Part shown: one piece after another, positions 6,146 to 23,108 of the stretch | Position numbering within the stretch: position 1 is the first letter of the stretch | How the letters are laid out: each line of letters opens with the position of its first letter | Origin: Chitinophagales bacterium | Lineage (GTDB): Bacteria; Bacteroidota; Bacteroidia; Chitinophagales; JADIYW01 | Length of the DNA stretch: 64,000 nt | Assembly: GCA_035515235.1 (NCBI GenBank) | Contig: DATJBS010000024.1 | Span: 1,634-65,633 of the forward strand | Reading direction: 5' to 3' | The notes under the pieces: generated by a model | Told to the model about the DNA's origin: nothing | Databases searched by the model: none | The model's input: only the letters and a program-made list of their open reading frames with translations | Position numbers and translations under genes: made by a program

Positions 6146-6146
6146 T

Positions 6147-6896: not shown

Positions 6897-7393
6897 GCGA
6901 AGTAGAAGAATTAATATTCCCAGACTTAGAATATTTTGAAGATTACAACGGTAATTTTCAAAATTACTTTCAAGCAGTATATCACATTTTTGAAAGCCAT
7001 TTTATTAAAAGACAACCAACATATGATGGACTAACTGTTTCCGCACCACGTCAACCACTTGTGGATGATAAACATCACAGAACATTTTATCACATCACTC
7101 ACGAAGGGGAAATTGAAAATGACCGTGAACCTGATTTCAGAAGAATGGAGCGTATACGGTTCCCAAAATATGTTATTGATTGTTGCCCTCATTCAAAATT
7201 ACTTGTTTGGGAAAAAACTATTGGAAGAGACCAACGCATACACATCTTGAATGAAGAAGAACAATATTTAGTAGTCCTTACAAGGCGTAAAACTTACCTA
7301 ATGCTATGTACGGCATTTTACATAGAGCATAGACACACGGTAAACAAAAAATTGAAAGAATATGAAGGGTATAAAAAAACCAAAACCGCTTAG
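6893..7393 (+). CDS. hypothetical protein (166 aa), no family recognised
   Basis: ORF with a 4-bp ATGA overlap to the DUF3800 gene. Last gene of the SNF2 cassette. Followed by a 230-bp spacer. Confidence 0.5.
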   Translation: MSEVEELIFPDLEYFEDYNGNFQNYFQAVYHIFESHFIKRQPTYDGLTVSAPRQPLVDDKHHRTFYHITHEGEIENDREPDFRRMERIRFPKYVIDCCPHSKLLVWEKTIGRDQRIHILNEEEQYLVVLTRRKTYLMLCTAFYIEHRHTVNKKLKEYEGYKKTKTA

Positions 7394-7623
7394 GGTTGCT
7401 AAACGGCTTCTAAACTCCTTTAACACTTACAGTCCTAAGACTTGGTTACTGAGCTGTCGCAAAGGTACAATTATTTTTGATATGTAGGGAATATTGGCTG
7501 GCTAAAAAAAACAAAAACATAATAGAAAACGAAATAGAAAATCATAAACCCTTGCAAAACAGACTGAAAACCTGTTTTGTGTAGCGTTTAGAAATTTTAA
7601 GACATAAATAGAAATTGATACAA

Positions 7624-9405
7624 ATGAGCAATAAAAAACAACTCCAAAAACTCGAACTCACTTGGATTGGCAAAGGCGAAGAACCCAAGCTCGAACCTCG
7701 TATTCTTATAGAAAACCCAGAGTACAGCTATGGCGACCCCAATAGCCCCAATATGCTTATACACGGAGACAACCTCCTTGCCCTTAAAGCCCTCGAACAA
7801 GACTATGCTGGCAAAGTAAAGTGCATTTACATTGACCCACCTTATAATACGGGTGCTGCGTTTGAGCATTATGATGATAACATTGAACATTCTATTTGGC
7901 TTGATTTAATGAAACGTAGATTAATGCTATTGAAGTCTTTACTTTCAAATGACGGCTTTATTTGTGTTCATATTGATGATAGTGAGGGTCACTATTTAAA
8001 GGTTTTAATGGATGAAGTTTTTGGCAGAAGCAATTACCTGGCAACTTTTTATGTTCGGGTAAGATATGCTGATAAAACGCTTAAACAAGATATGGCATTT
8101 CATAAAGAAATTGAGCAAGTTCATATATATCGAAAAGCATATGGTGCAAAGCCAAATTTGAATGAATCAGAATCTAACTTTGATAAATTCATTTATTATT
8201 TTGAAGAAAAATCTGAAGGTAGAGAAATTGAATTAGGCGGTAAAAAAGTAGTAATATTTGAGAAAGGTCAATATAAAATCAAAAAAGGTGAAGGTTCAGA
8301 AAATGGAAGAAAGGAGATTTGGGCTACAGGAACTATTTTAGACGGCAATTCATCTGGTAGATTTTTTCGTGATTATTTAACAGGTAGATATGAAACTGAT
8401 GGTCTTGGAGTAGTTTATAAAGTTTACGGTATTGGTGATGATAAATTTGATTTTAGATACTTTACAGGACCACAAAGAGAAGGTGCAACAAAGGGTAAAT
8501 ACTTTCAAGGGGTTCCTAATTCCCAATTAGAAAATCAAGACGAAACTAAAAAAAGCCCCATTAGTAATTTTTATGATTTAGCGGGTAGTTTCGGTAATTG
8601 TCGTCACGAAGGAGGTGTTGATTTCAGAAGTGGTAAAAAACCTGAAAAACTACTTCAAATTATTTTAAATCATTTTAGTAACGAAGGTGATTTAGTACTT
8701 GACAGTTTCTTAGGGAGTGGTTCGACAGCAGCTACTGCTTTTAAAATGAGAAGAAGATGGATAGGTATCGAATTAGGTGAGCAAGCTTATTCTCATTGTT
8801 TACCACGACTAAAATCTATTCAAAAAGGCACTGATTTGACTGGAGTTACAACAGAAACCGATTGGAAAGGTGGTGGCGGTTTTAAGTTTTACACTTTAGC
8901 TCCAAGCCTATTAAAGAAAGACAAGTTTGGTAACGAAATCATCAACCCAAGCTACAATGCCGATATGCTGGCAGCAGCAATGGCAAAGCAAGAGGGTTTT
9001 AAATACCAACCTCACGAAAGCAGCTATTGGAAACAAGGGCAAAGTGCAGAGCAAGATTTTATTTTTACCACTACACAGTTTCTTACTGTAGAAGCCTTAG
9101 ACAGCATCAAAGACGAAATGCAACCGGGCGAAACATTGCTCATTTGTTGTAAGTCTTTCCAAAAAGAATGCAAAGGCAAGTTTAGCAACATCACCATCAA
9201 AAAAATTCCTTTGATGCTATTGGGCAGATGCGAATATGGTAAGGAAGATTATAGCTTGAATATTATTAATATGCCAGTGTCAGAACAGGATTCAGAGGAT
9301 TTTCAAGATGGACAAGATTTTGAAGGCGACAAAGTAAGTGTTCAAGAATTAGCAGATAAGAATGTAATGAGCAAAAAAACTAATAACCCTTCATTATTCG
9401 ATTAA
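7624..9405 (+). CDS. mod: type III restriction-modification methyltransferase (Mod; beta-class N6-adenine/N4-cytosine MTase)
   Basis: Motif IV CIYIDPPYNTG precedes motif I LVLDSFLGSGSTAATA, with a long variable region between them. This is the beta-class order typical of type III Mod. The track start at 7615 is TTG. The ATG at 7624 (MSNKKQL) is more likely. Confidence 0.85.
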   Translation: MSNKKQLQKLELTWIGKGEEPKLEPRILIENPEYSYGDPNSPNMLIHGDNLLALKALEQDYAGKVKCIYIDPPYNTGAAFEHYDDNIEHSIWLDLMKRRLMLLKSLLSNDGFICVHIDDSEGHYLKVLMDEVFGRSNYLATFYVRVRYADKTLKQDMAFHKEIEQVHIYRKAYGAKPNLNESESNFDKFIYYFEEKSEGREIELGGKKVVIFEKGQYKIKKGEGSENGRKEIWATGTILDGNSSGRFFRDYLTGRYETDGLGVVYKVYGIGDDKFDFRYFTGPQREGATKGKYFQGVPNSQLENQDETKKSPISNFYDLAGSFGNCRHEGGVDFRSGKKPEKLLQIILNHFSNEGDLVLDSFLGSGSTAATAFKMRRRWIGIELGEQAYSHCLPRLKSIQKGTDLTGVTTETDWKGGGGFKFYTLAPSLLKKDKFGNEIINPSYNADMLAAAMAKQEGFKYQPHESSYWKQGQSAEQDFIFTTTQFLTVEALDSIKDEMQPGETLLICCKSFQKECKGKFSNITIKKIPLMLLGRCEYGKEDYSLNIINMPVSEQDSEDFQDGQDFEGDKVSVQELADKNVMSKKTNNPSLFD

Positions 9406-9407
9406 TT

Positions 9408-9824
9408 ATGGACATTAATGATTTAACGCATAAAATAATTGGAGCATCAATGCAAGTGCATCGAGTGTTGGGAAATGGTTTTCAAGAAGTCATTTATCAA
9501 AGAGCCTTAGCAGTTGAGTTTAATCATATTGGCATCAACTACGAAAGAGAAAAAGAAATGAATATATTTTATAGAGACGAACAAGTCGGTACTCGAAGAG
9601 TAGATTTTTTTGTCGAAGAAGCCGTAATGGTAGAACTTAAAGCCGTTTCAGAATTAGAAGAAGCTCACAAAGCCCAAGCCATTAATTACTTAGAAGCCTA
9701 TGGCATTGCCAACGGCTTACTTATCAATTTTGGCAAAACAAGTTTAGAGTTCAAAAGGGTTTACAATAAGAAGTTAGTAAATCCTGCCAATCCCATTAAT
9801 CATAAAAATCCTGTTCAAGACTAA
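9408..9824 (+). CDS. GxxExxY family protein (PD-(D/E)xK fold)
   Basis: VDFFVEEAVMVELKAV, then QAINYLEAYGIANGLLINFG, which contains the family-naming motif. Lies between mod and res with 2-nt and 1-nt gaps. Confidence 0.8.
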   Translation: MDINDLTHKIIGASMQVHRVLGNGFQEVIYQRALAVEFNHIGINYEREKEMNIFYRDEQVGTRRVDFFVEEAVMVELKAVSELEEAHKAQAINYLEAYGIANGLLINFGKTSLEFKRVYNKKLVNPANPINHKNPVQD

Positions 9825-9825
9825 T

Positions 9826-12498
9826 ATGAATACAACAGCCAATAACATAAAACAACGCTTATCACTTCGTGAACCGCTTCAAGATTCACTCGATATTGTG
9901 GCTCAACTTTGTCAAGAATTAGAGCTAAAAAAAGAAGTAGATTTATTAGCAGAATTAGAAAAAGTAAAAGCTCATTTTCCTACCTGTACCGATTTTGAAA
10001 GAGATTTTGTATCCATTGCTTTTTCTATTGCCACAGGTGTAGGCAAAACCCGTTTAATGGGGGCTATTGTAGCTTATTTATACTTGCAAAAAGGCGTAAA
10101 AAACTTTTTCATTTTAGCACCTAACTTGACTATTTACGATAAACTCATAGAAGATTTTGGCAATCCTGCTTATCACAAATATGTGTTTAATGGCATATCA
10201 GAATTTGTACACAACAGACCTGTAGTAATTACAGGCGATAATTATGCACAGCAAGGAGTATTATTTTCAGATTCAGAAATCCGTATTAATATTTTCAATA
10301 TTGCCAAGTTCAATTCGGATAACAGAGGAACAAAGCAAGGTGGGGTTTCTTTAGCTCCGAAAATCAAAAGACTATCCGAGTATTTAGGGCAATCATATTG
10401 GGAATATTTGTCAGGTTTAGAAGATTTAGTTATTCTAATGGACGAAGCACACCGATACCACGCAGATGCTTCTAAAAATGCCATCAATGAACTAAAGCCC
10501 ATTTTAGGCATAGAAATGACCGCAACTCCATTTGATGAAAAAGGCAAGCAATTCAAAAACATAGTTTTTGAATATTCCTTAGCCCAAGCCTTGTCAGATG
10601 GTAAGTACGTAAAGAACCCGGCTATTGCCACTCGTAAGAATTTTCAAAAAGGCTCTTTAAGTGATCGAGAAGTAGAAATCATCAAATTAGAAGATGCCAT
10701 AAGCATACACCAAGACACCAAAAACGAATTGGAAATCTATTCCAAAAACAACGAAGTGAAATTGGTAAAACCTTTCATTTTAGTAGTTTGTAAAGACATT
10801 GCCCACGCCAAAGAAATATACGAACTCATCAATACAGATGGGTTTTATGATGGGCAATACAAAGGCAAAGTCTTACAAATAGATTCATCAACCAAAAAAG
10901 AAGAGGATATTGAGCAACAGTTTATTTCTTTAGAAAGTACAGATAATGAAATAGAAATTGTAATCCACGTAAATATGCTCAAAGAGGGTTGGGATGTAAC
11001 CAACCTATACACCATTGTGCCACTTCGTGCCGCCAATGCAGGTATTTTAGTAGAACAAACCATTGGTAGAGGGTTAAGACTACCTTATGAGGGCAAAAGA
11101 ACAGGCGTAGATAAAATTGATAAATTAACGGTAGTAGCCCACGAAAACTTCAATGCCGTTATTGAAGCAGCCCAAGACCCTAACTCGGTATTAAACAAAA
11201 TGAGTTTTGTAGAAATAGCCGAAGAAGATTTATCTACCAAAACCGTAGTAGTTACCTCTCAGCCAGTAATGGAGCAAACCTTTGTAAAGGAGCAGGAAAA
11301 AATCAATATTATTGTCAACCCACAAGACAAACAAAAGGCACAAAACAACTTAGATGCTAAAAAAGCGATTATCAATGTATTGCCCGATTTTGGCAGTTTA
11401 CCCGAAGTAAGACGTGTTGAAGATTTAAGCAAAGAGGAAGTAAAACGTAAAGTAATACGGCAAGTAGAAAAAAACCTATCCGAAGGTCAGTTGAATGTAT
11501 TTGCAGCTCAAATTGTAGCAGAAGCCAAAGAGGTGTATGACACAATGGTAACAGAATACAAAAAGAATATCATTGAAATACCACGTATGGACTTGGTGCA
11601 AGGCGAAACAAGAGCCGAGTTCAAAGACTTTGATTTAGATATTACAGGGTTCAATTTTCAAGCCTTAGAGCAAGAAATTATCCGAATGGGTTTAAAAGAT
11701 AGGCAAGTAGAAACACTCAAAGCAAAATCAAGTGGTTCGTATGGCAATCCTATCAAACTAATCATTGCAGAATTAATTGATTACCCAGAAATTGATTATG
11801 ATGAAAATGCAGACTTGCTTTATCATTTAGCAACCCAAGCCTACGAAGCTATTAAAGCCAATATAAGCAACGAAGAAGAATTGCCTTCGGCAATCTTCCA
11901 ATTCAAAGCAGCCATAGCGGAAAAGGTTTATAATCAAATGAAACAGCACTTTCAGTTGCATTCAGCAGATTATGTTGCCCCAAGAGTATTTCCATTTATA
12001 CGCATAGAGCAATGGAGTTTTTCTTCATTGGTAAATGCAGGCTACAAAGACTATCGAGATATAGTAAGCCCTACCAATATGATTCCTAAATACGTATTCA
12101 GAGGTTTTGAAAAAGCTTGTCATTTTGAATACAAGTTTGACAGTAAAGCCGAACAAGATTTAGCCTTTGTATTAGAAAATGATGCAACAGTAATCAAGTG
12201 GTTAAGACCAGCACCTAATCAGTTCCGTATTTATTGGGATAACAACTCAAAAAGGTATGAACCCGACTTTATTGTAGAAACAGCAGGCACCATTTATATG
12301 CTTGAAGTCAAGCGTTCAGATCAAACCGAAGAAGAAACCGTATTAGCCAAAAAAGTAGCAGCAGAACGCTTCTGTAAATACGCTTCTGAATACACAGCAG
12401 AAAATCAAGGTAAAAAGTGGATGTATTTAATATTACCGCATAACGAAGTAAGCAGAACGGTAAATATGAATTATTTAGCAACGAAGTTTAAAGGGTAA
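9826..12498 (+). CDS. res: type III restriction endonuclease Res subunit (SF2 helicase + C-terminal PD-(D/E)xK nuclease)
   Basis: ATGVGKTR (I), ILMDEAHRYH (II, DEAH), EMTATP (III), QTIGRGLRLP (VI). C-terminal YEPDFIVETAGTIYMLEVKRSD nuclease motif. Confidence 0.85.
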   Translation: MNTTANNIKQRLSLREPLQDSLDIVAQLCQELELKKEVDLLAELEKVKAHFPTCTDFERDFVSIAFSIATGVGKTRLMGAIVAYLYLQKGVKNFFILAPNLTIYDKLIEDFGNPAYHKYVFNGISEFVHNRPVVITGDNYAQQGVLFSDSEIRINIFNIAKFNSDNRGTKQGGVSLAPKIKRLSEYLGQSYWEYLSGLEDLVILMDEAHRYHADASKNAINELKPILGIEMTATPFDEKGKQFKNIVFEYSLAQALSDGKYVKNPAIATRKNFQKGSLSDREVEIIKLEDAISIHQDTKNELEIYSKNNEVKLVKPFILVVCKDIAHAKEIYELINTDGFYDGQYKGKVLQIDSSTKKEEDIEQQFISLESTDNEIEIVIHVNMLKEGWDVTNLYTIVPLRAANAGILVEQTIGRGLRLPYEGKRTGVDKIDKLTVVAHENFNAVIEAAQDPNSVLNKMSFVEIAEEDLSTKTVVVTSQPVMEQTFVKEQEKINIIVNPQDKQKAQNNLDAKKAIINVLPDFGSLPEVRRVEDLSKEEVKRKVIRQVEKNLSEGQLNVFAAQIVAEAKEVYDTMVTEYKKNIIEIPRMDLVQGETRAEFKDFDLDITGFNFQALEQEIIRMGLKDRQVETLKAKSSGSYGNPIKLIIAELIDYPEIDYDENADLLYHLATQAYEAIKANISNEEELPSAIFQFKAAIAEKVYNQMKQHFQLHSADYVAPRVFPFIRIEQWSFSSLVNAGYKDYRDIVSPTNMIPKYVFRGFEKACHFEYKFDSKAEQDLAFVLENDATVIKWLRPAPNQFRIYWDNNSKRYEPDFIVETAGTIYMLEVKRSDQTEEETVLAKKVAAERFCKYASEYTAENQGKKWMYLILPHNEVSRTVNMNYLATKFKG

Positions 12499-12588: not shown

Positions 12589-15500
12589 ATGTCAATTTGG
12601 TATAATAAAAAAGAAGAAGAAATCATTCAGAGATTAAAAAACACTTTAGAATCCCAAAGTCTACAATTCATTGGGAAATTTACAAGTGTTGAAGACAAAG
12701 ATTTTGGCTTTTTTAAAGATGTTCGATCAGTATCAGGAGTCAGAAAATATTACCCAACTAATGAAGGTGAGCCAGATGATTTCAACAATAGACCATTAGA
12801 AGTTTGGTCTAAAAAAACTATTTTATTTAACAGTGGCAAAAAGAAAATAATTCTTGAAGAAGGAAAATGGTATAAATTTTATGCAGTCCCAACTCAAAGC
12901 CAACTCAGGTTAAAAAATAAAAATCCTTTTTTGTTACAAACTGATTTGTCCAGAGCGGTTGATATAAGTTTATTTAGGGGAAATGAATTGATTGAAAATA
13001 TTCAACAAGATTCAATTAATACACCAGAATCTGTTAAAGGGAAACTAACTCGTTCAATTGAAGCAATTTCAAATGAAATCAATACACAACCAGCAACTTT
13101 CATTTTTGAGTTAATTCAAAATGCAGATGACTATCCCAATGATGAGAAATATGTAAAAATGTCGTTTGATATTAAGAACCCTTATTTGGTTATAAAGCAT
13201 AATGGCAGCCAATTTGACGTAAATAATGCTGTAGCTATATGTGATATTAATGAAGGTGATAAAAGAAATGAAGTTGAGAAAATTGGTTTTAAGGGAATTG
13301 GCTTTAAATCAATTTTTAAGGATTGTAATCTTGCTTATTTGAAATCTGGAGAATATTCATTTCGCTTTGATGAAATAAAATGGCGTAATGAGGGTAGGAA
13401 ACTATTTTGGCAAATTACCCCTATTAATACTGATGAAAAGGATTTCCGTAACATATTACTGCCTTCCAATAATGTCAATTTGATAATAAAACCGAAGGAG
13501 CCAAAGCAGCTAAGTAATTATAAGTTTACTTTATTGGAACATTTTAAGGATGAGAGGATTTTACTTTTTTTGAGAAATGTTAAGGAGATTGATTTCATTT
13601 TAAATGACGATTCATTTAGCATTTCAAATACTGATAATAAATGGAGAATTTTTAAATCAAAAAATATTTTAGTTGAAGAAAGCATTCGTGTGGAATTAAA
13701 TAGAGGAATAGCACTTAATGATAAAAGGATACCTTTAAAATACCAAAGTATTGAAAAAACTGAAATAGGGTTTGGCTTTTTAGTAAATGAAAATAAAGTT
13801 CAAAGTGTTGACGATGCAACAATTTATGCTTATTTACCAACAAAGGTCAATTTAGGCTTCGGATTTTTACTCAATGGGAATTTTATACCTGATGGGTCAC
13901 GTACACATTTACACCAAGATCTGACTTGGAATAATTATTTATTTGAGAAGGCAGGAGAACTTTTTCCTAATAAGCTTATTGAATTGATTGAAAGTGACAT
14001 TGACACATCAAGCGTCTTAAATCTTATTCCAAATTTTTATAAACTATTAGATGTAAATGACGATGAAAAAATTCAATTTATTAAGGCTTTTAAAGAAGGT
14101 TTTGATAAAAATATTACATCAAAACAGTTTATTCCAACTAAGGCAGGCTCTTTAGAAGCCCTTTCTAATATTTTGATTGATGAAACGGGTTTAGCAGATT
14201 TGTTAAAAGATGAATTTTTTGAATTAACACGTATTTCAGCAAAGTTGATTGATAATGAAGTTGGTGAAGGTATTGAGAAGATAAAAGCACTCATTTCAGA
14301 ATCCAGTCAAGGAGTTGTTTACGGTATTGAAGATTTGAAAGCCAGCTTAAAGACAGCTGTGTTTCAAGATTGGCTAAAAATTCCGTCAAACAACTTTAGG
14401 CTCATTCAGCATTTTCAATCATCAGCAGATCTACAAAGTTTACTTGAAACAGAAGCAATAATTTTATCAGAAAGCAAACAGTTACTAAAATCATCTGCAT
14501 TATTTAGTGATGTTCCAAATGAAGTAACTTTTCTAACCACTGAAAAAATAAACAGTGAGCTTCTAGGCTTATTGACTGAAAGTAAAATCAATCTTTCACT
14601 CACTGAATTTGAACCAGTTAAATTTTTCAAAAATAATATTGTAGCCAAACAAGTAAATATAAACGCTTCTTTGACTGATGAAACAAATCTTCTCAATTTT
14701 TGGAAATTCATATTTGACAACTGGACTCTATTTGAGCCTGATATTGCAATTAAAGATTCCTTTAAGCATTTTGTAGTTCTCTGCAAACCGAAAACTGAAA
14801 ACGAACTTTCAAAGAAAGTGATTTCATCGGCTTACTTGTCAAGTGAATTTAATTCTACAAATGATATTGAAATTGTAGTGAAAGATATTAGCCCAGATGA
14901 GGTATTTATTTCTGATAAATACATTGATAAGAAAAGAGAAGCAGAAAAATGGAGAAAGATTTTCAAGCAGGCGGGTGCTATTACTGATTTGCAGAAAGTT
15001 ATTGAAGTTCTATTACCCAAACTACCAATTATAGAACCGGCCAAGCATTTTGAAATTGCAAAGCAGATTTTCAAGTTTTGGAAAGACCCTGCAAACAAGT
15101 TGACTGATGCCCAAATTGCGTTAATAAAAACCAATCTCAATATCAAATGCGTTGATAAAAAATTCCGAAAATCAACCGACTGTATTATCTCTGACCATTA
15201 CAATAATAATCAACTCATTGCTTCGTGGCTTCCAAACATAGAACTTGCAAATCAAGTTGCACAAGAGTATGCACCCAGAACAAACCAGGTTGCAGAATGG
15301 AAAAATTTCTTTGCCTTGATTGGATGTGTTGAGTTGACAGACAAGCAAAATGTATTTGATGCTAAAATAGCTTTTATAGTTGATGCACAGGATAAATTAC
15401 TATTAAACCATTTTCAAATTTTAAAAGATATTTCAGATTTGCATAAAGCAAAAAAAGAAAATGGATTAGAATTTGATTTTAAGACTTATTTGTCGCAAAT

Positions 15501-17439
15501 CAAATTACAAACAAGTAATGGAGAATGGCACTTAGCATACAATATTCATTTCTCAAACTTTTACAACCCAAAGTTGCGTTTGCAGAACGATCAATCAATC
15601 AATTCAATACTATTTTTTTTAAACGATAGCTATCAACCCACCCTAATAGATAAAAATTTTCTCACTGCTATAGGTGTTAACGATAGTTTCAAGTTCTATT
15701 TATCCAATTGTAAAAGAAGTGAGATACCAAACGATTATAGGCAAAGATTTGACAGCATAGCCCCGTACATAGTGCAAAATGCAAGTCTTTATAAAAGTCA
15801 ACATAGATTGCTAAATCATATTGACCTTAATTACAAATATCTTTTAGTCGAATACAAATACTCAGAAATATTTTGGACGGAAGTAAAGAAACCAAACTCA
15901 AAGCATATAAAATTCCTATTTCAAGAAAGCACCTATAATTGTGGATACAACGGAAGCTTCAATGTTCAATTGGAGAATTTTGTTGTGAATTTTATTAAAC
16001 AGAATGCAACACTTCCAAACAAAGACAATAATCTTAAAAAGCCAACTGAGTTGTTTTCATATTTATTATCTGATTACATCACCGACAAGAATGACTTATT
16101 TAAATATGATTTAAGTGGAATTTATTTTGACAACGACCAATCAAAATCATTGGAAGACATTTTAGGAGTTCAAAGATTACTGTCCCAAAAACATTGCATT
16201 GAATTATTAAGTAGAACTGAGTACAGAGTTGCACCAGAACAAATCCCAGCACTTCAAATTGTAGAGATACTTTCAGATTACACTCCTGATAATTATGAAA
16301 AGGAGATACTGTTTTTGCCAAATAAGAACCTTGAATGGAAATCAATAAATGAATTGTTCATTTCAAACGATGAGCAGTTTCAACTTGACCCACGCCAAAG
16401 TCTGCACGAAGATTTCTATTCTATTGCGTTAAGTTTTGGGGTTCAGGAATTGTCAGAAGATAATCTGGTTTTGATAACAAAACCTAAAACGCCACTGATT
16501 ACAGATGAAATAGAATCATTTTTTAGAAATAAAGCAAAATTTATCGCATTCAAAATTGACCATTTAAATTACGAAGAAGTTGAAGCGATGATAATTGAAA
16601 AGATTAATCAAATAGAGTTTTACGAGATTACATCAATTTCAAAGGTATTTCCAGAAGTTAAGCCAATTTACAAAACTGAAATTGCTTTTCATTTTGAGGA
16701 AGATGAGGATAAAATCTTTTATAAAGGCAACTGGAAAACAAATTCAGAGCTTAAATTATACTTACATAAGCACATTCTTGAAGAAAAAATTCCTGAAGCT
16801 TGGTTTGAGAATGTTATTAATAGGTGGGATGAGAAAGAATTGAGTGAATTATTGATAGGTGAATATGGTAGTACACCCTTTGATAACGAAGAGGAAATTA
16901 TTGATAATGAAAAAATATTTTGGGACGAATATTCAGAAGATGAAGCCACTTATATTAAGTCAATTGTAAATATTAACTACAATCAAGAAGGTCAATTAGA
17001 TGCTAATACAACTGCCAAGATTAAAACACTAATGCTTATAAAAGGCGATTTCGGTAATTCACCAATCTCAGACGAAGGTCGCTACTTAAAAGCGGGAAAT
17101 AATGAAATTCTTGTTCGTTCTGCACAAAAGGGTCTATTGTACCTTGATTTATTTCATTGGGAAAGACTGACCGAAGACAATGTAAAGATTGCTGTTTATA
17201 CCAATACCCAAATTAACATATTTAACTCACAAGCAGATTTATTCCAATTCTATAAACCCCAAAATAAGTTTGGCGTTTTGCGAATGCCAGACGATTACAA
17301 TTTAGATGATTACAATTCTTTAAATAATATTTTTGATAAAGGCAAATGGCATTTTGTATTTATTGTCAATGAAGATGCAACAGCAGCTAAGCAATACAAG
17401 GAGATTATTGATCTTGATGAATATAATAATTACGGATAA
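12589..17439 (+). CDS. giant sacsin/NO VEIN-like GHKL (Bergerat-fold) ATPase, 1616 aa
   Basis: N-box FIFELIQNADDY (nt ~13100-13135), HNGSQFD, GFKGIGFKSIFK. Possible cold-shock/OB-like N-terminus (GKFTSVEDKDFGFFKD...LEEGKWYKFYAV). Repeated F-x3-G-[AVC]-x-[DE] modules. Possible DUF3883-like C-terminus, at low confidence. Confidence 0.75.
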   Translation: MSIWYNKKEEEIIQRLKNTLESQSLQFIGKFTSVEDKDFGFFKDVRSVSGVRKYYPTNEGEPDDFNNRPLEVWSKKTILFNSGKKKIILEEGKWYKFYAVPTQSQLRLKNKNPFLLQTDLSRAVDISLFRGNELIENIQQDSINTPESVKGKLTRSIEAISNEINTQPATFIFELIQNADDYPNDEKYVKMSFDIKNPYLVIKHNGSQFDVNNAVAICDINEGDKRNEVEKIGFKGIGFKSIFKDCNLAYLKSGEYSFRFDEIKWRNEGRKLFWQITPINTDEKDFRNILLPSNNVNLIIKPKEPKQLSNYKFTLLEHFKDERILLFLRNVKEIDFILNDDSFSISNTDNKWRIFKSKNILVEESIRVELNRGIALNDKRIPLKYQSIEKTEIGFGFLVNENKVQSVDDATIYAYLPTKVNLGFGFLLNGNFIPDGSRTHLHQDLTWNNYLFEKAGELFPNKLIELIESDIDTSSVLNLIPNFYKLLDVNDDEKIQFIKAFKEGFDKNITSKQFIPTKAGSLEALSNILIDETGLADLLKDEFFELTRISAKLIDNEVGEGIEKIKALISESSQGVVYGIEDLKASLKTAVFQDWLKIPSNNFRLIQHFQSSADLQSLLETEAIILSESKQLLKSSALFSDVPNEVTFLTTEKINSELLGLLTESKINLSLTEFEPVKFFKNNIVAKQVNINASLTDETNLLNFWKFIFDNWTLFEPDIAIKDSFKHFVVLCKPKTENELSKKVISSAYLSSEFNSTNDIEIVVKDISPDEVFISDKYIDKKREAEKWRKIFKQAGAITDLQKVIEVLLPKLPIIEPAKHFEIAKQIFKFWKDPANKLTDAQIALIKTNLNIKCVDKKFRKSTDCIISDHYNNNQLIASWLPNIELANQVAQEYAPRTNQVAEWKNFFALIGCVELTDKQNVFDAKIAFIVDAQDKLLLNHFQILKDISDLHKAKKENGLEFDFKTYLSQIKLQTSNGEWHLAYNIHFSNFYNPKLRLQNDQSINSILFFLNDSYQPTLIDKNFLTAIGVNDSFKFYLSNCKRSEIPNDYRQRFDSIAPYIVQNASLYKSQHRLLNHIDLNYKYLLVEYKYSEIFWTEVKKPNSKHIKFLFQESTYNCGYNGSFNVQLENFVVNFIKQNATLPNKDNNLKKPTELFSYLLSDYITDKNDLFKYDLSGIYFDNDQSKSLEDILGVQRLLSQKHCIELLSRTEYRVAPEQIPALQIVEILSDYTPDNYEKEILFLPNKNLEWKSINELFISNDEQFQLDPRQSLHEDFYSIALSFGVQELSEDNLVLITKPKTPLITDEIESFFRNKAKFIAFKIDHLNYEEVEAMIIEKINQIEFYEITSISKVFPEVKPIYKTEIAFHFEEDEDKIFYKGNWKTNSELKLYLHKHILEEKIPEAWFENVINRWDEKELSELLIGEYGSTPFDNEEEIIDNEKIFWDEYSEDEATYIKSIVNINYNQEGQLDANTTAKIKTLMLIKGDFGNSPISDEGRYLKAGNNEILVRSAQKGLLYLDLFHWERLTEDNVKIAVYTNTQINIFNSQADLFQFYKPQNKFGVLRMPDDYNLDDYNSLNNIFDKGKWHFVFIVNEDATAAKQYKEIIDLDEYNNYG

Positions 17440-19688
17440 TGAAAAAGCTATCAAAAGAAAATCAGATAAAATTTTACCAAGAAGAGATTAAAAAAATCAT
17501 CGGTGATTACAAATCTTATCTCGATTCTAAATGCATTGATTTAATTAACAAGGTTGAGTTATTTATCGGCAATTTTGAATACGTTGATACTAATAGAAAT
17601 CAAGTCGTTTTCTCTTTTGATAAGGATAAACTACCAAAAACAAAAATTCCACTTACAGCATCCAAGCCAATTTCTTCCGATATTTTGGGTTCCGATTTCA
17701 AGAGTATCACTTACAATACTTACAGAAATAAATTTGTAAAAGGTTATACAGAGTGTTATGGCGTCTATTACCAAGAGTTAAACGGTAAGTACAAAGTGGG
17801 TTTTAGTAATTTTGAAATTGAGTTTTTAAATTCATTAGCTATTGGTGATAAAATAGTTTTTGGAATTTCCGATCCTCCATTGAAATACTATTTCAACTTA
17901 ATTCAATTAACCAAGAATGAAGTAAATTCTAAAGTAGTCGATGCTGTCCTCTTCAGTAACTACCATTTAAATGATTTTAAACCAATACATATAGATAATT
18001 CTTTAGAACTAATAGATAAGTATAAAACCAATTTACACAGCAGTGATACAATCATTATTCAAGGTCCTCCTGGTACGGGAAAAACGTTCTTTATTTCAAG
18101 ACTACTTTCTTTGCTTTCGGAAGAAAAGAAATCAGTAATGGTAGCCACTTTGGCAAATAGATCACTTATTGAGCTTGCAAAAAAGTATTTTGAAATTAAG
18201 TATGCTAAGAAGGGTGTTGTCTTTAAATCGAATTTAACATTAGAAGAAACCAAAGAAGTAAAGGAATTGAAACCTATACCTAAGGACTTTCTTCCATCAG
18301 TAGGCAACATTTTGTTAACCACTTTTTATAAAATGACAGGAGTAGCCGCAGAAAATATAACGACTCCAATTTATGATTATATTATTTTAGAAGAAGCCAG
18401 TCAGTGCTTTTTAGGGACTATTGCAGCCGCAAGATTACTTGGTAAGAAAGTAATCTTGGTAGGTGACCCACTTCAATTGCCTCCAATTGTGAACCAAGAA
18501 AATCCAAGTAAAATATCAGTTGATATTGATTTAATACAGGAGTCATTTACTTTCTATGCTTCTACAATTAATTGCCCAAAATTCAGATTAACAACAACCT
18601 ACAGGTTTTCAGAGAATGCCTGTTTGCAGACAAATACGTTTTATGAAAACAGCCTAAAATCAAAATCAGATATTCAAAAAGGCAATGAGATATTTTCAAA
18701 AATACCTACCCTTTACAACAACAAAGGCGGCAGCTCATTATTCTATTACGATTCAACAAATTTGAGAAGTATTTATGACTTGCTTTTAGCTCAGATAAAT
18801 GCCTTGCTTCAAATAAACCCCAAGTTTGAAATTGCGATTTTATCTTCTACAAAGAAAGGTGTGAAATTGTTAAGAGATAATTTACTTCATAAATTCAATG
18901 ATAAACAAGACCAAATTCTGATTAATACAGTCGATAGCGTTCAAGGCTTGACAATTGACTTCTGCTTTTATTTTGCGTTTTCTGATGGCAGTCCTACGTT
19001 TTCATTCAAACTAAACCGGTTCAATGTGGCAACAAGCAGAGCAAGATTTTGTACATTGATTCTATTAGATGAAGTTTACAAAGTGGTTCAGCCCTACAAA
19101 GGTTTGGTAGCCGAATTTATCTCAAAGTGTGATTTAAATAATGATACTTCTGTTCTCAAAATTATAGAAGCAGCCAGCAACAGTGATTCCACACTGCCTA
19201 AAACACCAGGATTAAAAGTTATAGACAGGGTAGACCTATCCAAGTTTGAAAAGCCTAAGAAGGAAATCATCAAAGGCAAGGAAAATATTTACATCATTGA
19301 TACCAATGTATTTGTAGACTGCCCTGAAATAATTTCCAAAATTGATACTAAATACAGTATAGTCCTTTCTGCCAAAGTAATCGATGAGTTGGACTACCTT
19401 AAAATCTCTTTAACCGAAGAACAGAAACGAAATGTTCAGAAGGCATTAAGGCTAATAAACGAGAGTATTGATAAGCGTGGCATTAAAATGGAAACAGCTG
19501 ATCTAAACTTATTACCCAATGACTTCAACAAAAAATCACCTGACAATTTTATCCTATCAGTTGCCCTAAAATTCAAAGGTGAAAACCCCATAATGCTCAC
19601 ATCTGATAATGGCTTGCAGATAAAAACCAAAGGATTAGGTGTAACCACAATTACGCTAAAGGAGTTTTTGAATCAAAGGAAGTATTAA
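17439..19688 (+). CDS. SF1 (Upf1/DNA2-like, AAA_11/AAA_12) helicase fused to a C-terminal PhoH/YlaK-type PIN nuclease domain
   Basis: IIQGPPGTGKTF (Walker A, nt ~18061), ILEEASQ (II), VGDPLQLPPI, TTTYRF, TVDSVQGLTIDF, NVATSRAR. PIN motifs: IYIIDTNVFVD (nt ~19286), VIDELDYLK, SPDNFILSVAL, MLTSDNGLQIK. The ATG overlaps the upstream stop (TAATG). Confidence 0.85.
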   Translation: MKKLSKENQIKFYQEEIKKIIGDYKSYLDSKCIDLINKVELFIGNFEYVDTNRNQVVFSFDKDKLPKTKIPLTASKPISSDILGSDFKSITYNTYRNKFVKGYTECYGVYYQELNGKYKVGFSNFEIEFLNSLAIGDKIVFGISDPPLKYYFNLIQLTKNEVNSKVVDAVLFSNYHLNDFKPIHIDNSLELIDKYKTNLHSSDTIIIQGPPGTGKTFFISRLLSLLSEEKKSVMVATLANRSLIELAKKYFEIKYAKKGVVFKSNLTLEETKEVKELKPIPKDFLPSVGNILLTTFYKMTGVAAENITTPIYDYIILEEASQCFLGTIAAARLLGKKVILVGDPLQLPPIVNQENPSKISVDIDLIQESFTFYASTINCPKFRLTTTYRFSENACLQTNTFYENSLKSKSDIQKGNEIFSKIPTLYNNKGGSSLFYYDSTNLRSIYDLLLAQINALLQINPKFEIAILSSTKKGVKLLRDNLLHKFNDKQDQILINTVDSVQGLTIDFCFYFAFSDGSPTFSFKLNRFNVATSRARFCTLILLDEVYKVVQPYKGLVAEFISKCDLNNDTSVLKIIEAASNSDSTLPKTPGLKVIDRVDLSKFEKPKKEIIKGKENIYIIDTNVFVDCPEIISKIDTKYSIVLSAKVIDELDYLKISLTEEQKRNVQKALRLINESIDKRGIKMETADLNLLPNDFNKKSPDNFILSVALKFKGENPIMLTSDNGLQIKTKGLGVTTITLKEFLNQRKY

Positions 19689-19703: not shown

Positions 19704-20246
19704 TCATTCAAAATTTATTTCAATTGAATTTCTTCTAATCATAGTTGCCAATTCCTGTCTAATGGTAGTTCTTAATTTATTGAATTTACTTAATGTTACC
19801 TCATAATTTTCTTTTGTAACTACTTCATAATTAACCCAAATTCTAAAAACACAATGAGGATACATACAACAGAGTGGATCGTGTATTAGCTGCATTGTGC
19901 AATTATTGCTATTGCCATTTTTTATTTCTTGAAAATATTTTATGTATTGATTATTCTCATTTAAACTTTTTATCTCCAAAATACAAACAACCTTTCCAGT
20001 ATATTTTTCTAACTCATCTTCAGGTATAATATTAAACAAAACATCATCCATCTCTGAAATGATATTTCCACAGTTACTACCTAAATTATTTGAAATATCA
20101 CGCAACGAAATCGACTGAAAAGGATTTTCTATTTCATTAGGGTTACATCTTCTAAATATCAAATCTCCAATTCGAAACTCCAAAAAGACTGGTTTCTCGT
20201 TCCAATGTAATGATCCATGTATGTAATTTAGTGTACAATCCGGCAT
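19704..20246 (-). CDS. hypothetical protein (180 aa, Cys-containing HDPLCCMYPHC segment)
   Basis: Third gene of a tightly packed minus-strand operon, 6 nt after the upstream stop. Converges on the helicase-PIN gene with a 15-bp spacer. Confidence 0.5.
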   Translation of the reverse strand: MPDCTLNYIHGSLHWNEKPVFLEFRIGDLIFRRCNPNEIENPFQSISLRDISNNLGSNCGNIISEMDDVLFNIIPEDELEKYTGKVVCILEIKSLNENNQYIKYFQEIKNGNSNNCTMQLIHDPLCCMYPHCVFRIWVNYEVVTKENYEVTLSKFNKLRTTIRQELATMIRRNSIEINFE

Positions 20247-20252
20247 TAAATA

Positions 20253-20705
20253 CTATGAAAGAAAGTTTAACACAATTGATTCAAAATCACATCCATCAAT
20301 GGTATAAAATTCTAATAAATTACCTTTCTGGTTGCCAATAAACGAAAAAGCAAAATCATTTTCTGGATGCAGAATAATATTAACAAGCCCCTTTTCTGAT
20401 TCTCTAAATAGTAATAAGTCTCCATCATCGTTAAGAGAATGCTTAAAGCTCTTTAATCTATGAGGATCTATAATTAACCTAACTTTATTAAGCTGATTGA
20501 TTATTTCAGAAAGAACGGAAATCTGCCACTGTGTTAGTGTGTCATAATCATTAGTAATTTGATTATATATTTCTTCAACTTCTTCAATTAAGGGATTAGC
20601 AAAAGTTGTGTTTTCTTGTTCAAACATTTCTTTATAAAAATCACCTGCAAACTCAGACTGAACTAATGTTTGTTTAAATGCAATAATTTCCATTGAGTTG
20701 TTCAT
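20253..20705 (-). CDS. hypothetical protein (150 aa, acidic)
   Basis: 4-bp overlap (ATGA) with the upstream 234-aa gene. No recognisable motif. Confidence 0.5.
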   Translation of the reverse strand: MNNSMEIIAFKQTLVQSEFAGDFYKEMFEQENTTFANPLIEEVEEIYNQITNDYDTLTQWQISVLSEIINQLNKVRLIIDPHRLKSFKHSLNDDGDLLLFRESEKGLVNIILHPENDFAFSFIGNQKGNLLEFYTIDGCDFESIVLNFLS

Positions 20706-21406
20706 AAATTATATTTGTTTTTGGTTTTTTCTGTAATGCACTCTTGGAAGATACTGTTTTTAAGTTCTCTCATATCTCCAAATGCATCACTGATATTTTC
20801 ATAATATTTCCCTTCAATTCTTCTATTAAGATTAATATCCAAAATTATTCCTTCTTTTTTATTGTCTTTTCCTTTTGTAACTGCAATTGTAGCTTCAGTT
20901 TTTGGATCGTTTACTAATGTATATTTTATAGAAGTAAAACTTTGCTTTACTTCTGTAAACGGACTTTCAGTCCAAATGTTTACAAAGTCTTTGATTTGTT
21001 CATCTTTGTCAATATCTATAAAGTTTAAATATCTTAAAGAAACATTTGTAACAATCAATTGTCCAGTGCATATTTGAAACTTCTCCCAATAAGAATTTAG
21101 CTCTAATATAAGTTCCACGTATGATTTGTACTCCTTAGTTTTGTGAAATGCCAATAAACCAACTTTGGCTTGTAAAATTCTATTGTAAGGCTCGTCGCAT
21201 TTTAAAACATACCCTGATTTCTGCACATTAGTTACTGGAGGGGTGCCATCAGAAGTTGCTTTCAAATTAGCATTATATCCAGGTCTAATAACAGGAAAAG
21301 CTTTCTTTATTTCATCAATTTCAACAAAATTTTGAAGGCAATCTAACTTTATGTTTTCTGCAAACGAGATACTGAATATTATTTCCTTGATTGGATTTGA
21401 TGACAT
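20702..21406 (-). CDS. hypothetical protein, TIGR04255-like
   Basis: N-terminal PIKEIIFSISFAENI and central VSLRYLNFIDI resemble the remembered TIGR04255 signature (N-terminal beta strand, then R-x-G-LRY-x-N). First gene of the minus-strand trio. Confidence 0.45.
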   Translation of the reverse strand: MSSNPIKEIIFSISFAENIKLDCLQNFVEIDEIKKAFPVIRPGYNANLKATSDGTPPVTNVQKSGYVLKCDEPYNRILQAKVGLLAFHKTKEYKSYVELILELNSYWEKFQICTGQLIVTNVSLRYLNFIDIDKDEQIKDFVNIWTESPFTEVKQSFTSIKYTLVNDPKTEATIAVTKGKDNKKEGIILDINLNRRIEGKYYENISDAFGDMRELKNSIFQECITEKTKNKYNL

Positions 21407-22682
21407 AATTCTTAATAGTCTATCTTAAGTGAAAATTTATTCGAGAGCTTGTACTATACAAATCTAACAATATAATCTAATTTTATTAAGTTTTGATTTT
21501 TATAATGAAACTGAAAGGGTATTATATTTACTACATTAATTACTGATGCCAAACATGTCTTATGCACTCCCATCGCACAATGCCAATGCTTCAGTGCATT
21601 TATGGTACTGCGCCATTTTTAAACTGTCATACTTTTTGTGTGGTCTGTTTCCCACGCTTTACAGCACATTGCTTTTTTGTTTAAAGCATTTAATTTTTTA
21701 GAGGTAAAACTAAAAAAGCAAAGAGTTGTTGCCAACCCTCCACAGCCCAAACAAAAAGCCGCTACATTCCAACCACCACCACCATTTCGCTTATGCCAGT
21801 ATTAAAAATGTCGGAAGCTAAGTTACATAATGTGCCATTATGTGTTCGCTACGCATAGACCCTGCCTTACTGATGCAAGCATCCCCACCCAAGGGCTATC
21901 ACATAATGACATTATGTAAAATAGCCAGTACCATAACCGATTCATGAAAACTATCCCCACTCACAAAAGCCTTACTGATATTTTCATGTATCGGAAGCCG
22001 TAAAATCGTTACGGACATTTACCCATTACTCCCCACCACCCTTTTCAGAGGTGCAGAAAAAATAAACTATCATATTTTATTCGGCTTTAAGCAGCTGCTA
22101 TTCCATTTCATTACATAGCACCAACTACAGCCTATATTGCAAGCAAGAGTATTGCCTTCTCTACATTCCACGAACCCTCTCTTTATTTCATTACGCAATC
22201 TGTATGCTTGACGTAATAGACTTGAACTTTGCAGAAATGTAAAGTTTGCAAAGTTTGCATTCTTGCAAAAGCATACAAGACTGCTTCATTCCATGCCCAT
22301 ACATTCGTTCCATTCCGTTCAGTCAGCACACTTGCTACCCTCAAGCCCTAGGCACATTATTGATATAGTTTATTTTTCTGATGTGTCACCCCATTTATGC
22401 AGATTTCATTATTTCTAATTTAGAATAAAAGTTAGGACAGATAGGACAGAATAATATCAAAAAGAATAAAAAAGGAAGCAAATGTAGGTGGTTAAAGATG
22501 GTCTGAAAAGGTCAAGCCCTACGGGTTTTGAAAAAAATCTCCACCCTTTCGGGTAGTATTTTTCTCAAAAACCTTGTCAGCCCACTTCTTACCACCATTT
22601 GAAAGGCTTTCTTTTTTTTTCGTTTTTTTCTTTGACATTTTATTGTCGAGGGGGATTTCGGAAGCCAACTAAATCCTTTCAA
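21407..22682. other. ~1.28 kb ORF-free divergent intergenic region, C-rich/G-poor on the + strand, dense in palindromes and short repeats (candidate ncRNA, origin/oriT-like or operator array)
   Basis: No track ORF lies within 21407-22511. The only track ORFs touching the region are at its right edge (a 75-aa minus-strand ORF at 22512-22739 and the TTG-extended 22599 ORF), and I reject both. C-runs at 21769-21786, 21881-21890 and 22031-22041. Palindromes ACATAATG-N-CATTATGT at 21825-21843 and 21901-21917. Hairpin at 21998-22014. 9-bp arms at 22201-22209 and 22269-22277. Tandem AAGTTTGCA x2 at 22242-22259. Tandem TAGGACAGA at 22433-22449. T9 and T7 tracts at 22612-22629. Confidence 0.5.
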
Positions 22683-23108
22683 ATGGCAAAATTCTCTCTT
22701 AAAACTTACAGTCCAGCAACTAAAACCGAAATGTTGCAATTTTTTATTTTAAACAAAGGGAAAAACAGCGGAAAACCACTTTCCGAGCCTTGCCCGAATT
22801 GCTTTGTTTTAACCGCCAAAAGCGAAGAAGATAAGCAGTTTTTTTACTCACTTTGTTTCGGCTTATGGAAGGCAAAATCCTTTGAATATTTCTTAAAAGG
22901 TTCTGTTATCCCATTCATTACCATTGGCGATTGTAAACAAGCCATCAATAACGGATTAGAGCAAGCCAAAACCGATTTAAAAGGCTTCAATAGGTCAGTA
23001 AAGGCATTAGAAATTTTAGAGCAGCAAGAGAAAAAATACAAAGAAACTTTGCTCCTTATCAATGATGCAAAGAGGGCTATTTTTTACCGTTACATCAAAA
23101 GGAGGTAA
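22683..23108 (+). CDS. hypothetical protein (141 aa); weak resemblance to a single target-recognition domain plus helix of type I HsdS
   Basis: The track ORF starts at a TTG at 22599, but the ATG at 22683 (MAKFSLKTY) is more plausible. NKGKNSGKP...FFYSLCFGLWKAKSFEYFLKGSVIPFITIGDCKQ, followed by a helical tail, recalls the HsdS TRD layout. Low confidence. Confidence 0.4.
   Translation: MAKFSLKTYSPATKTEMLQFFILNKGKNSGKPLSEPCPNCFVLTAKSEEDKQFFYSLCFGLWKAKSFEYFLKGSVIPFITIGDCKQAINNGLEQAKTDLKGFNRSVKALEILEQQEKKYKETLLLINDAKRAIFYRYIKRR

Follow-up and report, generated by a model that had tools for sequence, protein, structure and literature searches.

The gene pair

The DNA analysed here, called the window, is a stretch of 64,000 nucleotides from contig DATJBS010000024.1 of a Chitinophagales bacterium (assembly GCA_035515235.1). 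Its G+C content is about 31-36%, and its closest relatives are metagenome-assembled genomes (MAGs) and isolates of Bacteroidota. The subject of the analysis is a pair of genes, open reading frame 1 (ORF1) and ORF2, which encode a giant GHKL ATPase and a superfamily 1 (SF1) helicase joined to a PIN domain. A preliminary description, made from the letters of the sequence alone, had presented the two as a translationally coupled candidate defence system that could not be placed in any named system. Both ORFs were present, with the overlap of stop and start codons that had been claimed for them (Table 1), and the quoted motifs were all found in their places in the two translations. In ORF1 these were FIFELIQNADDY at amino acid (aa) 171, HNGSQFD at aa 204, GFKGIGFKSIFK at aa 233 and ISDEGRYLKAGNNEILVRSAQKG at aa 1493. 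The motifs seen in ORF2 were GPPGTGKT, LEEASQ, VGDPLQLPP, TVDSVQGLTIDF and NVATSRAR in the helicase, followed by IYIIDTNVFVD, DELDYLK, SPDNFIL and TSDNGL. Chance was ruled out as an issue for ORF1, because 1354 homologues at E ≤ 1e-5 were obtained among 8000 candidates scored.

Table 1. Positions in the window of the two genes and of their parts, with the basis on which each was delimited.
Feature	Coordinates	Strand	Description and basis
ORF1	12589..17439	+	1616 aa, ATG start; TmtA-like (Tiamat family) sacsin/Hsp90-type GHKL ATPase without NOV_C/DUF3883 nuclease
ORF2	17439..19688	+	749 aa, ATG start; Upf1-like SF1B helicase with C-terminal PIN_4 nuclease domain
TAATG	17437..17441	+	TAA stop of ORF1 and ATG of ORF2 overlap by one base; read from the sequence
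ORF1, cold-shock/OB-like domain at the N-terminus, about aa 25-120	12661..12948	+	AlphaFold model and Foldseek
ORF1, Bergerat-fold ATP-binding boxes, aa 171-244	13099..13320	+	N-box FIFELIQNADDY, HNGSQFD, G-box GFKGIGFKSIFK
ORF1, three repeat modules of about 115 aa (aa 690-805, 806-925, 926-1040)	14656..15708	+	hhalign
ORF1, C-terminal helicase-associated domain of about 200 aa, aa 1434-1613	16888..17427	+	motif ILVRSAQKGLLYLDLFHW; iterated hidden Markov model (HMM)
ORF2, N-terminal region, aa 1-190	17439..18008	+	alignment of 37 partner helicases
ORF2, SF1 helicase core	18021..19118	+	Walker A GPPGTGKT, DExx LEEASQ, motifs III-VI
ORF2, PIN_4 domain, aa 618-740	19290..19658	+	Pfam, E = 5.7e-20; acidic active site complete

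Family assignment and domains of ORF1

Profile searches were employed to place ORF1. The PADLOC model of TmtA, PDLC03972, matched it with an E-value of 1e-126, aa 133-796 aligning with profile positions 5-671 of 1302, and five further PADLOC TmtA models matched it as well. The NCBIfam model P_loop_sacsin, which describes the N-terminal ATP-binding domain of sacsin, gave 69.4 bits against a cutoff of 50, while Pfam SACS stood at threshold (32.7 bits, cutoff 32.8). A profile of ORF1 homologues (n = 18) matched sequences in the PDB from sacsin Hsp90-like domains only. Within the ATP-binding boxes, residues E174, N178, D181, G206, G233, K235, G236 and G238 were invariant in 18 full-length homologues, which share 25-81% identity. 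Because of these matches and the invariant boxes, the earlier assignment of ORF1 to the Bergerat fold, and to the sacsin/NO VEIN (NOV) branch of the GHKL ATPases, is correct.

Published Tiamat consists of only one gene, TmtA, whose listed domains are "Hsp90, DUF3684, DUF3883" (Millman et al., 2022, preprint 10.1101/2022.05.11.491447, supplementary file 11). The verified representative is the TmtA of Bacillus cereus FORC_005, a protein of 1590 aa that was tested as a 5883-bp one-gene construct (10.1101/2022.05.11.491447). A BLASTP comparison of ORF1 with this protein, which covers its first 399 aa as given in the preprint supplement, returned two blocks, one of 30% identity over 89 aa at the ATP-binding boxes (E = 1e-9) and the other of 34% over 67 aa (E = 2e-6). 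From these two blocks and the profile matches, ORF1 is placed as a distant, genuine member of the TmtA superfamily, and the view that the pair fits no named system has to be given up for its first gene.

The N-terminus of ORF1 had been read as a cold-shock or OB fold. An AlphaFold model of aa 1-140 was obtained with a predicted local distance difference test (pLDDT) score of 91.8, and the top Foldseek matches of the N-terminus were all OB folds, namely the cold-shock domain of Lin28 (E = 0.012, probability 0.99), the cold-shock protein of B. caldolyticus, eIF1A and uS17. The model is confident and its matches coherent, but the matches themselves are weak and not significant by E-value. The claim of a recurrent module in the middle of the protein stood in part. 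The strict pattern F-x3-G-[AVC]-x-[DE] was found once, at aa 908, and not four times; a looser form of it occurs five times (aa 791, 907, 1024, 1188 and 1279), and three homologous modules were recovered. Pairwise hhalign comparison of these modules gave probabilities of 96.8%, 95.6% and 91.9%, with E-values from 2e-10 to 7e-7. Each of them closes with a W..F..hG[AVC] motif, and they lie inside the most variable part of the protein.

Domains and relatives of ORF2

ORF2 was matched by the Pfam domains AAA_11, AAA_12 and PIN_4. A profile built from 37 partner helicases matched IGHMBP2 (3e-29), Sen1 (2e-26), Upf1 (9e-24) and DNA2 (4e-17) in the PDB. The helicase residues K215, E319, D343, Q346 and R534 were invariant in all 37, and the PIN residues D621, E650, D652, D702 and D723 in all 20 partners that bear a PIN domain. 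The Pfam domains, the PDB matches and the invariant catalytic residues bear out the description of ORF2 as a complete Upf1/DNA2-like helicase fused to PIN. As judged from the alignments of both proteins, the catalytic residues of the GHKL, helicase and PIN centres are intact.

The first 190 aa of ORF2 had no match in Pfam. They are kept in the partner-helicase subfamily, where they contain a PPxxYxxNL motif with P147 and Y150 invariant in the 37 aligned sequences. PADLOC returned partial matches to MkoA (2.5e-25) and MkoC (8e-11), both of which are confined to the helicase core. Close homologues of ORF2 are annotated in public databases as Dna2, FCF1, PIN-domain or AAA proteins. No relative of ORF2 was found in a plasmid collection of 72,556 records.

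Conservation of the two genes as a unit

To define the neighbourhood of ORF1 homologues, the best 80 tblastn loci, one genome per species, were collected with the alignment of 18 homologues as query; this sample is biased towards Bacteroidota. Related loci are cited below by L numbers. A locus was counted as informative when its ATPase gene was complete and followed by at least 1.5 kb of downstream DNA, which was the case for 66 of the 80. An ORF2-like helicase gene was found directly 3' of the ATPase gene and on the same strand in 38 of these 66, at a distance of -80 to +12 bp, with overlaps prevailing. The hosts of these helicase-linked loci belong to Bacteroidota, Eggerthellaceae, Butyricicoccaceae, Anaerovoracaceae and Kiritimatiellae. 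At four more loci (L018, L019, L022 and L029) the ATPase and the helicase are fused in one polypeptide of 2640-2697 aa. Full-length Pfam and PADLOC scans of two of these, from Segatella copri (L019, 2640 aa) and from a member of Methanomethylophilaceae (L018, 2697 aa), identified a TmtA-like N-terminus together with AAA_11 and AAA_12. Six independent, Pfam-annotated gene calls show the same pair.

The reciprocal test started from the helicase, whose alignment was used in a metagenome scan. A giant GHKL gene was found directly upstream in 14 of the 17 relatives that match the N-terminal region of ORF2, the remaining three being cut by contig ends or otherwise uninformative. In the same scan, helicases that match the generic core only had no giant GHKL gene upstream. 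Adjacency, overlap, fusion and the positive reciprocal test uphold the earlier proposal that the two genes are co-conserved, and on this comparative evidence they are a real and widely conserved gene pair.

In three of these 14 cases (L089 4962-9986, L090 5932-9990 and L092 5542-9990), helicases of the partner type are preceded by very divergent giant GHKL genes of 1353-1675 aa, with ELIQNAKD or EFLQNAAD and GRFGTGF or GRFGIGFK as their motifs. These ATPases are missed by the profile of ORF1 homologues, and the association with the helicase therefore extends past the recognisable TmtA-like clade. Pairwise identities of the GHKL core and of the helicase core were found to be moderately correlated (Pearson 0.66, Spearman 0.35). 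This value fits a co-inheritance broken by module exchange and is not used here as strong evidence.

The C-terminal domain of ORF1

NOV_C/DUF3883, the nuclease in which canonical TmtA ends, was not found in ORF1 by Pfam at E ≤ 0.1. An HMM iterated from the C-terminus of ORF1 identified instead a domain that is present in 36 of 39 helicase-linked proteins, in none of 24 standalone proteins and in none of the four fused ones. Among 1.84 billion representative sequences the domain occurs in at least 230 clusters (50% identity), always at the extreme end of giant proteins or their fragments. It thus sits where single-gene TmtA has its NOV_C nuclease.

The C-terminus had been described as a possible degenerate DUF3883 or PD-(D/E)xK-like end. 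The model of aa 1400-1616 has a pLDDT of 74 overall and of 85-94 in its core. Its top Foldseek matches were nearly all PD-(D/E)xK folds (Hjc, tRNA-splicing endonuclease, EcoRV, influenza PA-N, Cas4 and RecU), none of which was significant (best E = 0.075). The sole invariant residue of the domain is S1511, and a conserved acidic pair was not seen in it. The DUF3883 part of the description was not borne out by Pfam, while the other part is kept as a reasonable lead rather than a result: the domain may adopt a degenerate restriction-endonuclease-like fold. The variants of its motif, VRSAQ or HSARG, were also tried as a predictor of the PIN domain, and this was rejected as each occurs both with and without PIN.

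Exchange of effector modules

The proteins of the sample were further compared for what lies in their last 350 aa. By Pfam, NOV_C was found in none of 39 helicase-linked proteins and in 19 of the 28 others (Fisher p = 3e-10), so that NOV_C and the helicase gene are mutually exclusive. The 28 proteins that are not helicase-linked include four with a helicase in cis (AAA_12), one with a caspase (Peptidase_C14) and one with Schlafen AlbA_2; the last two are further alternative outputs on the scaffold of the TmtA-like ATPase. Coverage of the TmtA profile of PADLOC follows the same division. L044, a standalone relative of 1294 aa, matches positions 1-1107 of 1302, whereas in the helicase-linked and the fused proteins, as in ORF1, the match ends after the first ~600-770 positions.

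Two proteins show where the exchange takes place. The ATPase of a Paludibacter locus (L047, helicase-linked) and that of a Lewinellaceae locus (L072, NOV_C-bearing) are 55% identical over 1083 aa and lack any similarity across the last ~230 aa, where the former has the helicase-associated domain, followed by the helicase gene, and the latter has NOV_C. A change on the other side of the boundary was found in Paenimyroides viscosum (L012 346-7637), where the helicase core is 92%, the ATPase C-terminus 46% and the GHKL core 24% identical to the pair of the window; by these values, L012 is a swap of the sensor before a conserved effector. The exclusion of NOV_C, the comparison of L047 and L072, the distribution of the C-terminal HMM and the case of L012 together argue that the C-terminal domain and the helicase gene act as one cassette that replaces NOV_C. 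As far as these comparisons reach, different ATPase bodies can carry this cassette.

The C-terminus of the partner helicases varies in turn. It carries PIN_4 in 20 of the 38 loci, HEPN_Swt1 in L020, Sel1/TPR repeats in L033 and nothing in forms of ~570-600 aa. Near-identical ATPases are paired with a helicase that bears PIN (L063) or with ones that have none (L061 and L069), and PIN domains share 50-93% identity where the attached helicase cores share 30-39%. This conservation of PIN reflects either module exchange or unusually strong constraint. Between the window (19290-19658), L003, L063, L166 and others, PIN identity reaches 86-88% in amino acids and 79-80% in nucleotides, with helicase cores at 35-39% and their DNA unalignable. 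In L165 (14902-17120) the helicase-PIN gene is found as two ORFs of 264 and 469 aa, probably a frameshift or a pseudogene.

The two genes also diverge at different rates. The identity of ORF1 homologues drops to 59% by rank 20 and to ~40% by rank 60, while that of ORF2 homologues stays at 77% or more over more than 120 clusters. Between ORF1 and its homologue in L001, the middle region is 71% identical and the other regions are 94-96% identical. A fast-changing ORF1 next to a conserved ORF2 is the pattern that would be expected of a sensor-effector pair in an arms race. As a separate observation, L088 (1832-5311) contains a PIN-less helicase of the partner type, and the next gene combines Schlafen AlbA_2 with HATPase_c_4; the giant ORF upstream of this helicase is cut by the contig end.

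Genomic context

The pair lies in an island that begins with a DUF3987 gene and a helix-turn-helix gene and continues with a DrmD-like SNF2 gene, PDC-M04A/B, type III Mod, PDDEXK_3, type III Res and the pair itself. As had been stated, the type III restriction-modification (R-M) genes immediately precede the pair on the same strand; res and ORF1 are only 90 bp apart. The location of the pair in a defence island holds for the window (DrmD, PDC-M04 and type III R-M) and for several other genomes. In Ferruginibacter a homologous pair lies between BREX and McrBC, where McrBC is a separate downstream pair, and in Runella between a DISARM-like cluster and BREX. One pair is found 3' of RmuC, a type IIG enzyme and GmrSD, and another is flanked by an SNF2 gene and a reverse transcriptase on its upstream side and by a WYL regulator downstream. 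These varied settings suggest a portable cassette that is usually placed in defence hotspots and is independent of type III R-M.

In a Saprospiraceae MAG (L166 3978-8881) the same mod-PDDEXK_3-res order was found, with 83% identity to the window for DrmD, 74% for Mod, 55% for PDDEXK_3 and 83% for Res. This R-M backbone is again followed by a GHKL-helicase-PIN pair, in which GHKL and helicase core share no more than 38-39% identity with their counterparts in the window. Since the backbone is shared at ~83% and the pair at 38-39%, the pair acts as an exchangeable cassette, and the site behind res seems to serve as a hotspot in which different variants of it settle.

Several features of the surrounding DNA were recorded in addition. 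The DrmD-like SNF2 gene (PADLOC E = 1e-204) is followed by two small genes of a PADLOC candidate system, PDC-M04A (DUF3800, E = 7e-93) and PDC-M04B (E = 2e-56), all within 3209-7393, and no other DISARM genes were seen beside it in the window. In the type III R-M system (7615-12498), the PDDEXK_3 gene (9408-9824) stands between mod and res. At the left edge of the island, the DUF3987 gene (80-1465) is of a kind typical of Bacteroidota integrative elements; no tRNA gene, which could have marked an integration site, was found anywhere in the 64-kb window. The region 3' of the pair contains small genes on the opposite strand, a DUF6943 gene and an SNase gene, and housekeeping nor genes begin at ~25 kb. 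Three of the small ORFs (180, 150 and 234 aa; 19704-21406, minus strand) are convergent with ORF2 and begin 15 bp beyond its stop. The ORFs of 180 and 234 aa had no match in Pfam or PADLOC, and that of 150 aa, for which only the Pfam scan was run, had none in Pfam. The DUF6943 gene recurs a few kb 3' of the pair, in the window (22599-23108), in L164 (21956-22375) and in L061 (10381-10785), with 41-43% identity, and may mark a common mobile-element backbone. A scan for promoters and terminators gave counts at the level of shuffled sequence; it used the sigma-70 consensus, which is unsuited to Bacteroidota.

Comparison with named systems

Tiamat is the closest named system, and its mechanism is given as unknown in reviews (PMC12926258). 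The two have in common the giant sacsin/Hsp90-like GHKL ATPase, its conserved N-box and G-box, a second shared block and the location in defence islands. They differ in that canonical TmtA ends in DUF3883/NOV_C, whereas ORF1 has another C-terminal domain of ~200 aa and an OB-like N-terminus. The constructs tested for Tiamat consist of one gene, whereas here a conserved helicase gene overlaps the ATPase gene and is fused to it in some relatives. DUF3684 was not found in ORF1 either, as Pfam at E ≤ 0.1 returned SACS only. By its domain content, then, the pair is related to Tiamat yet fails three of its defining features, namely NOV_C, DUF3684 and the single gene. Literature searches and the models of PADLOC and NCBIfam gave no description of the two-gene architecture or of a multi-gene Tiamat. 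These comparisons make the pair a variant within a system family already known, rather than something unrelated to all of them.

ORF2 invites comparison with Mokosh (MkoA/MkoB in type I, MkoC in type II), which likewise joins a Upf1-like SF1 helicase of the COG1112 type to a nuclease. The nuclease of Mokosh is of the PLD family, encoded by a second gene in type I and within the helicase protein in type II, where that of ORF2 is PIN_4; MkoA of type I has a Ser/Thr kinase, and Mokosh has no GHKL partner. Pfam identified no PLD domain in ORF1, ORF2 or their neighbours and no kinase domain in ORF2, and membership in Mokosh was rejected on account of these two absences and of a match limited to the helicase core. 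PhoH2 was rejected as well, since the NCBIfam model RNA5-3helPhoH2 matched the PIN domain only, with 14 bits against a cutoff of 680 (E = 0.014). In PhoH2 an N-terminal PIN precedes a PhoH-type ATPase, whereas ORF2 has a Upf1-type helicase first and PIN last. In eukaryotes, Upf1 works with the PIN endonuclease Smg6 in nonsense-mediated decay, and bacterial PhoH2 joins PIN and a PhoH RNA helicase in one protein. ORF2 resembles both, by analogy, in combining a helicase of the Upf1 RNA helicase class with an endonuclease of the PIN_4 type; there is no homology beyond the domains.

For ORF1, the paraMORC/MORC type (HATPase_c_3 with S5) was rejected, because its Pfam, NCBIfam and PDB matches are all of the sacsin type. 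Eukaryotic sacsin and NOV belong to the same GHKL branch, and NOV joins its ATPase to NOV_C just as single-gene TmtA does. They are set apart from ORF1 by the accessory domains that they carry, DnaJ and HEPN in the case of sacsin, and the similarity is limited to the ATPase module. To our knowledge, no helicase partner of eukaryotic sacsin or NOV has been reported.

CoCoNuT systems of types II and III are derived from McrBC, and their domain vocabulary was predicted by its authors to indicate RNA targeting (Bell et al., 2024, PMC11090510). This vocabulary includes cold-shock-like OB folds, UPF1-like SF1 helicases, HEPN-type RNases and inactivated PD-(D/E)xK domains (PMC11090510), which recalls the pair. 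CoCoNuT differs in having an McrB GTPase with McrC in place of a GHKL ATPase; the pair has no coiled-coil nuclease tandems, and its helicase carries PIN. Membership in CoCoNuT or McrBC was rejected, as no gene between positions 80 and 28273 of the window encodes an McrB-like GTPase or McrC.

Proposed mechanism and alternatives

The reading that we prefer, and regard as fairly probable, is that the pair forms a two-gene module, a variant of Tiamat at the level of the operon, in which ORF1 as the sensor would drive a helicase-nuclease output. The OB-like domain and the variable regions of ORF1 would bind a cue of infection, such as single-stranded nucleic acid. A cycle of the GHKL ATPase, with N-terminal dimerisation as in other GHKL proteins, would then shift its conformation, and the C-terminal domain would recruit or unleash the helicase. 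The helicase, of the 5'-3' Upf1-like class, would move on RNA or single-stranded DNA and deliver the strand to the PIN site. Cleavage of transcripts of the invader or host, or of replication intermediates, would halt the spread of a phage or mobile element. The substrate is probably RNA or single-stranded DNA, and the alternation of PIN with HEPN, the cold-shock fold and the class of the helicase lean to RNA, in line with the reasoning applied to CoCoNuT systems (PMC11090510). The preliminary description had proposed much the same, an ATPase sensor or clamp that licenses a helicase-PIN effector, and this may be considered more plausible in light of the pattern of effector swaps.

Several points weigh against this reading. 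RNA and single-stranded DNA alike serve as substrates of Upf1-like helicases and of PIN domains, so that the sequence cannot choose between them. About half of the partner helicases, those of ~570-600 aa, are without a recognisable nuclease domain. Not every pair can therefore have a nuclease as its output, and the effector may be the helicase itself or the C-terminal domain of ORF1; for the same reason, the ATPase and the helicase are the conserved core and PIN is an add-on. The fold matches of ORF1 are coherent yet statistically weak at both ends (E = 0.012 for the N-terminus and E = 0.075 for the C-terminus). When the helicase-linked C-terminus was compared with NOV_C-bearing ends by hhalign, the probability was 1% (E = 0.05), with the expected strand as the aligned stretch, and homology of the domain to NOV_C is therefore not claimed. 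The adjacency of 58% (38/66) belongs to the sample described above and is not a family-wide frequency. One homologous pair lies alone among housekeeping genes. The one Tiamat protein with validated activity is only distantly related and has another C-terminus, and an Enterobacter Tiamat candidate gave no protection (10.1101/2022.05.11.491447).

Four other explanations were weighed. The pair could be a guarded toxin that acts by abortive infection, the helicase-PIN protein being a constitutively dangerous RNase that is kept inactive by ORF1, no nucleic-acid sensor but a chaperone-like inhibitor or antitoxin, until ORF1 is titrated or disabled by a phage factor. Sacsin has been viewed as an Hsp90-like chaperone (PMC3710099), which would suit such a role. 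The translational coupling, with the gene of the putative inhibitor first, and the status of PIN domains as classic toxins point the same way, as does the far higher conservation of ORF2 than of ORF1, which would be expected if phages target ORF1. An antitoxin of 1616 aa with an OB fold and repeats would be unusual, however, and half of the partners have no toxin-like nuclease to be guarded. The scaffold also bears a nuclease in cis in Tiamat and a helicase in cis at four loci, which an allosteric sensor and effector fit better, and we consider the guarded toxin unlikely. The pair could also be an accessory of a larger restriction-type system, either the type III R-M or a DISARM-like SNF2 system, comparable to paraMORC in some R-M operons. 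It lies directly 3' of mod-PDDEXK_3-res in the window, L166 has the same backbone before its pair, and DrmD-like SNF2 genes occur within 10 kb upstream in several other loci. Similar Mod and Res genes were found within 10 kb in only 2 of the 38 helicase-linked loci, however, and other pairs adjoin BREX and McrBC, or RmuC, type IIG and GmrSD, or stand alone. The contrast between backbone and pair in L166 also speaks against a fixed association, and an accessory role appears quite improbable.

A function outside immunity was considered as well, in which the pair would serve housekeeping or mobile-element maintenance (RNA quality control, processing of replication intermediates or addiction) and travel in variable islands. 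Helicases of the Upf1/IGHMBP2/Sen1/DNA2 type and PIN domains do have housekeeping roles, the annotations of ORF2 homologues as Dna2 or FCF1 and the pair found among housekeeping genes agree with this, and the island begins with a gene typical of integrative elements. The family of ORF1 has, on the other hand, a validated anti-phage member, and the pair is patchily distributed across phyla and lies repeatedly between known defence systems. Diversification of the sensor and swapping of modules are typical of conflict systems, and no relative turned up in the plasmid records; this explanation is very improbable. Two independent single-gene systems, a Tiamat and one like Mokosh type II, might finally be neighbours by chance, as defence genes cluster and PADLOC assigns TmtA to ORF1 and partial MkoA/MkoC to ORF2. 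This is contradicted by the comparative data: the overlapping or adjacent arrangement is kept in 38 loci of several phyla, fusions exist, the reciprocal test is positive, and a dedicated C-terminal domain is found only in helicase-linked ATPases. The absence of PLD and the restriction of the Mokosh profiles to the helicase core tell against it too, and such a coincidence has hardly any likelihood left.

Significance

The natural domain swaps mark the boundary between sensor and output in Tiamat, and they show that the output can be either a cis-encoded nuclease or a helicase, the latter alone or joined to PIN or HEPN. There are consequences for annotation too. PADLOC models Tiamat as one gene, so that tallies of "Tiamat" in Bacteroidota are likely to combine two architectures. 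Single-gene models would label ORF1 at best, and the helicase partner would be left unannotated or taken for a Mokosh-like fragment.

A wider proposal is possible, although we consider it less likely than not. Tiamat may be a modular sensor platform in which a sacsin-like ATPase is wired either to NOV_C in cis or to a Upf1-like helicase in cis or trans, the latter ending in PIN, HEPN or nothing. The helicase-linked branch, which extends to Firmicutes, Actinobacteria, Kiritimatiellae and a methanogen-related archaeon, might then be an unrecognised form of RNA-surveillance immunity, a prokaryotic counterpart of Upf1 with the PIN domain of Smg6, triggered via the cold-shock-like domain. Were this true, a first functional handle on the nucleic-acid role of sacsin/NOV-type ATPases would be gained as well. 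Independently of this proposal, the branch adds to gut and environmental Bacteroidota a candidate immune module directed at RNA or single-stranded DNA. Through the pair, the eukaryotic sacsin/NOV ATPases and the logic of Upf1-PIN RNA surveillance are both linked to a conflict system of prokaryotes.

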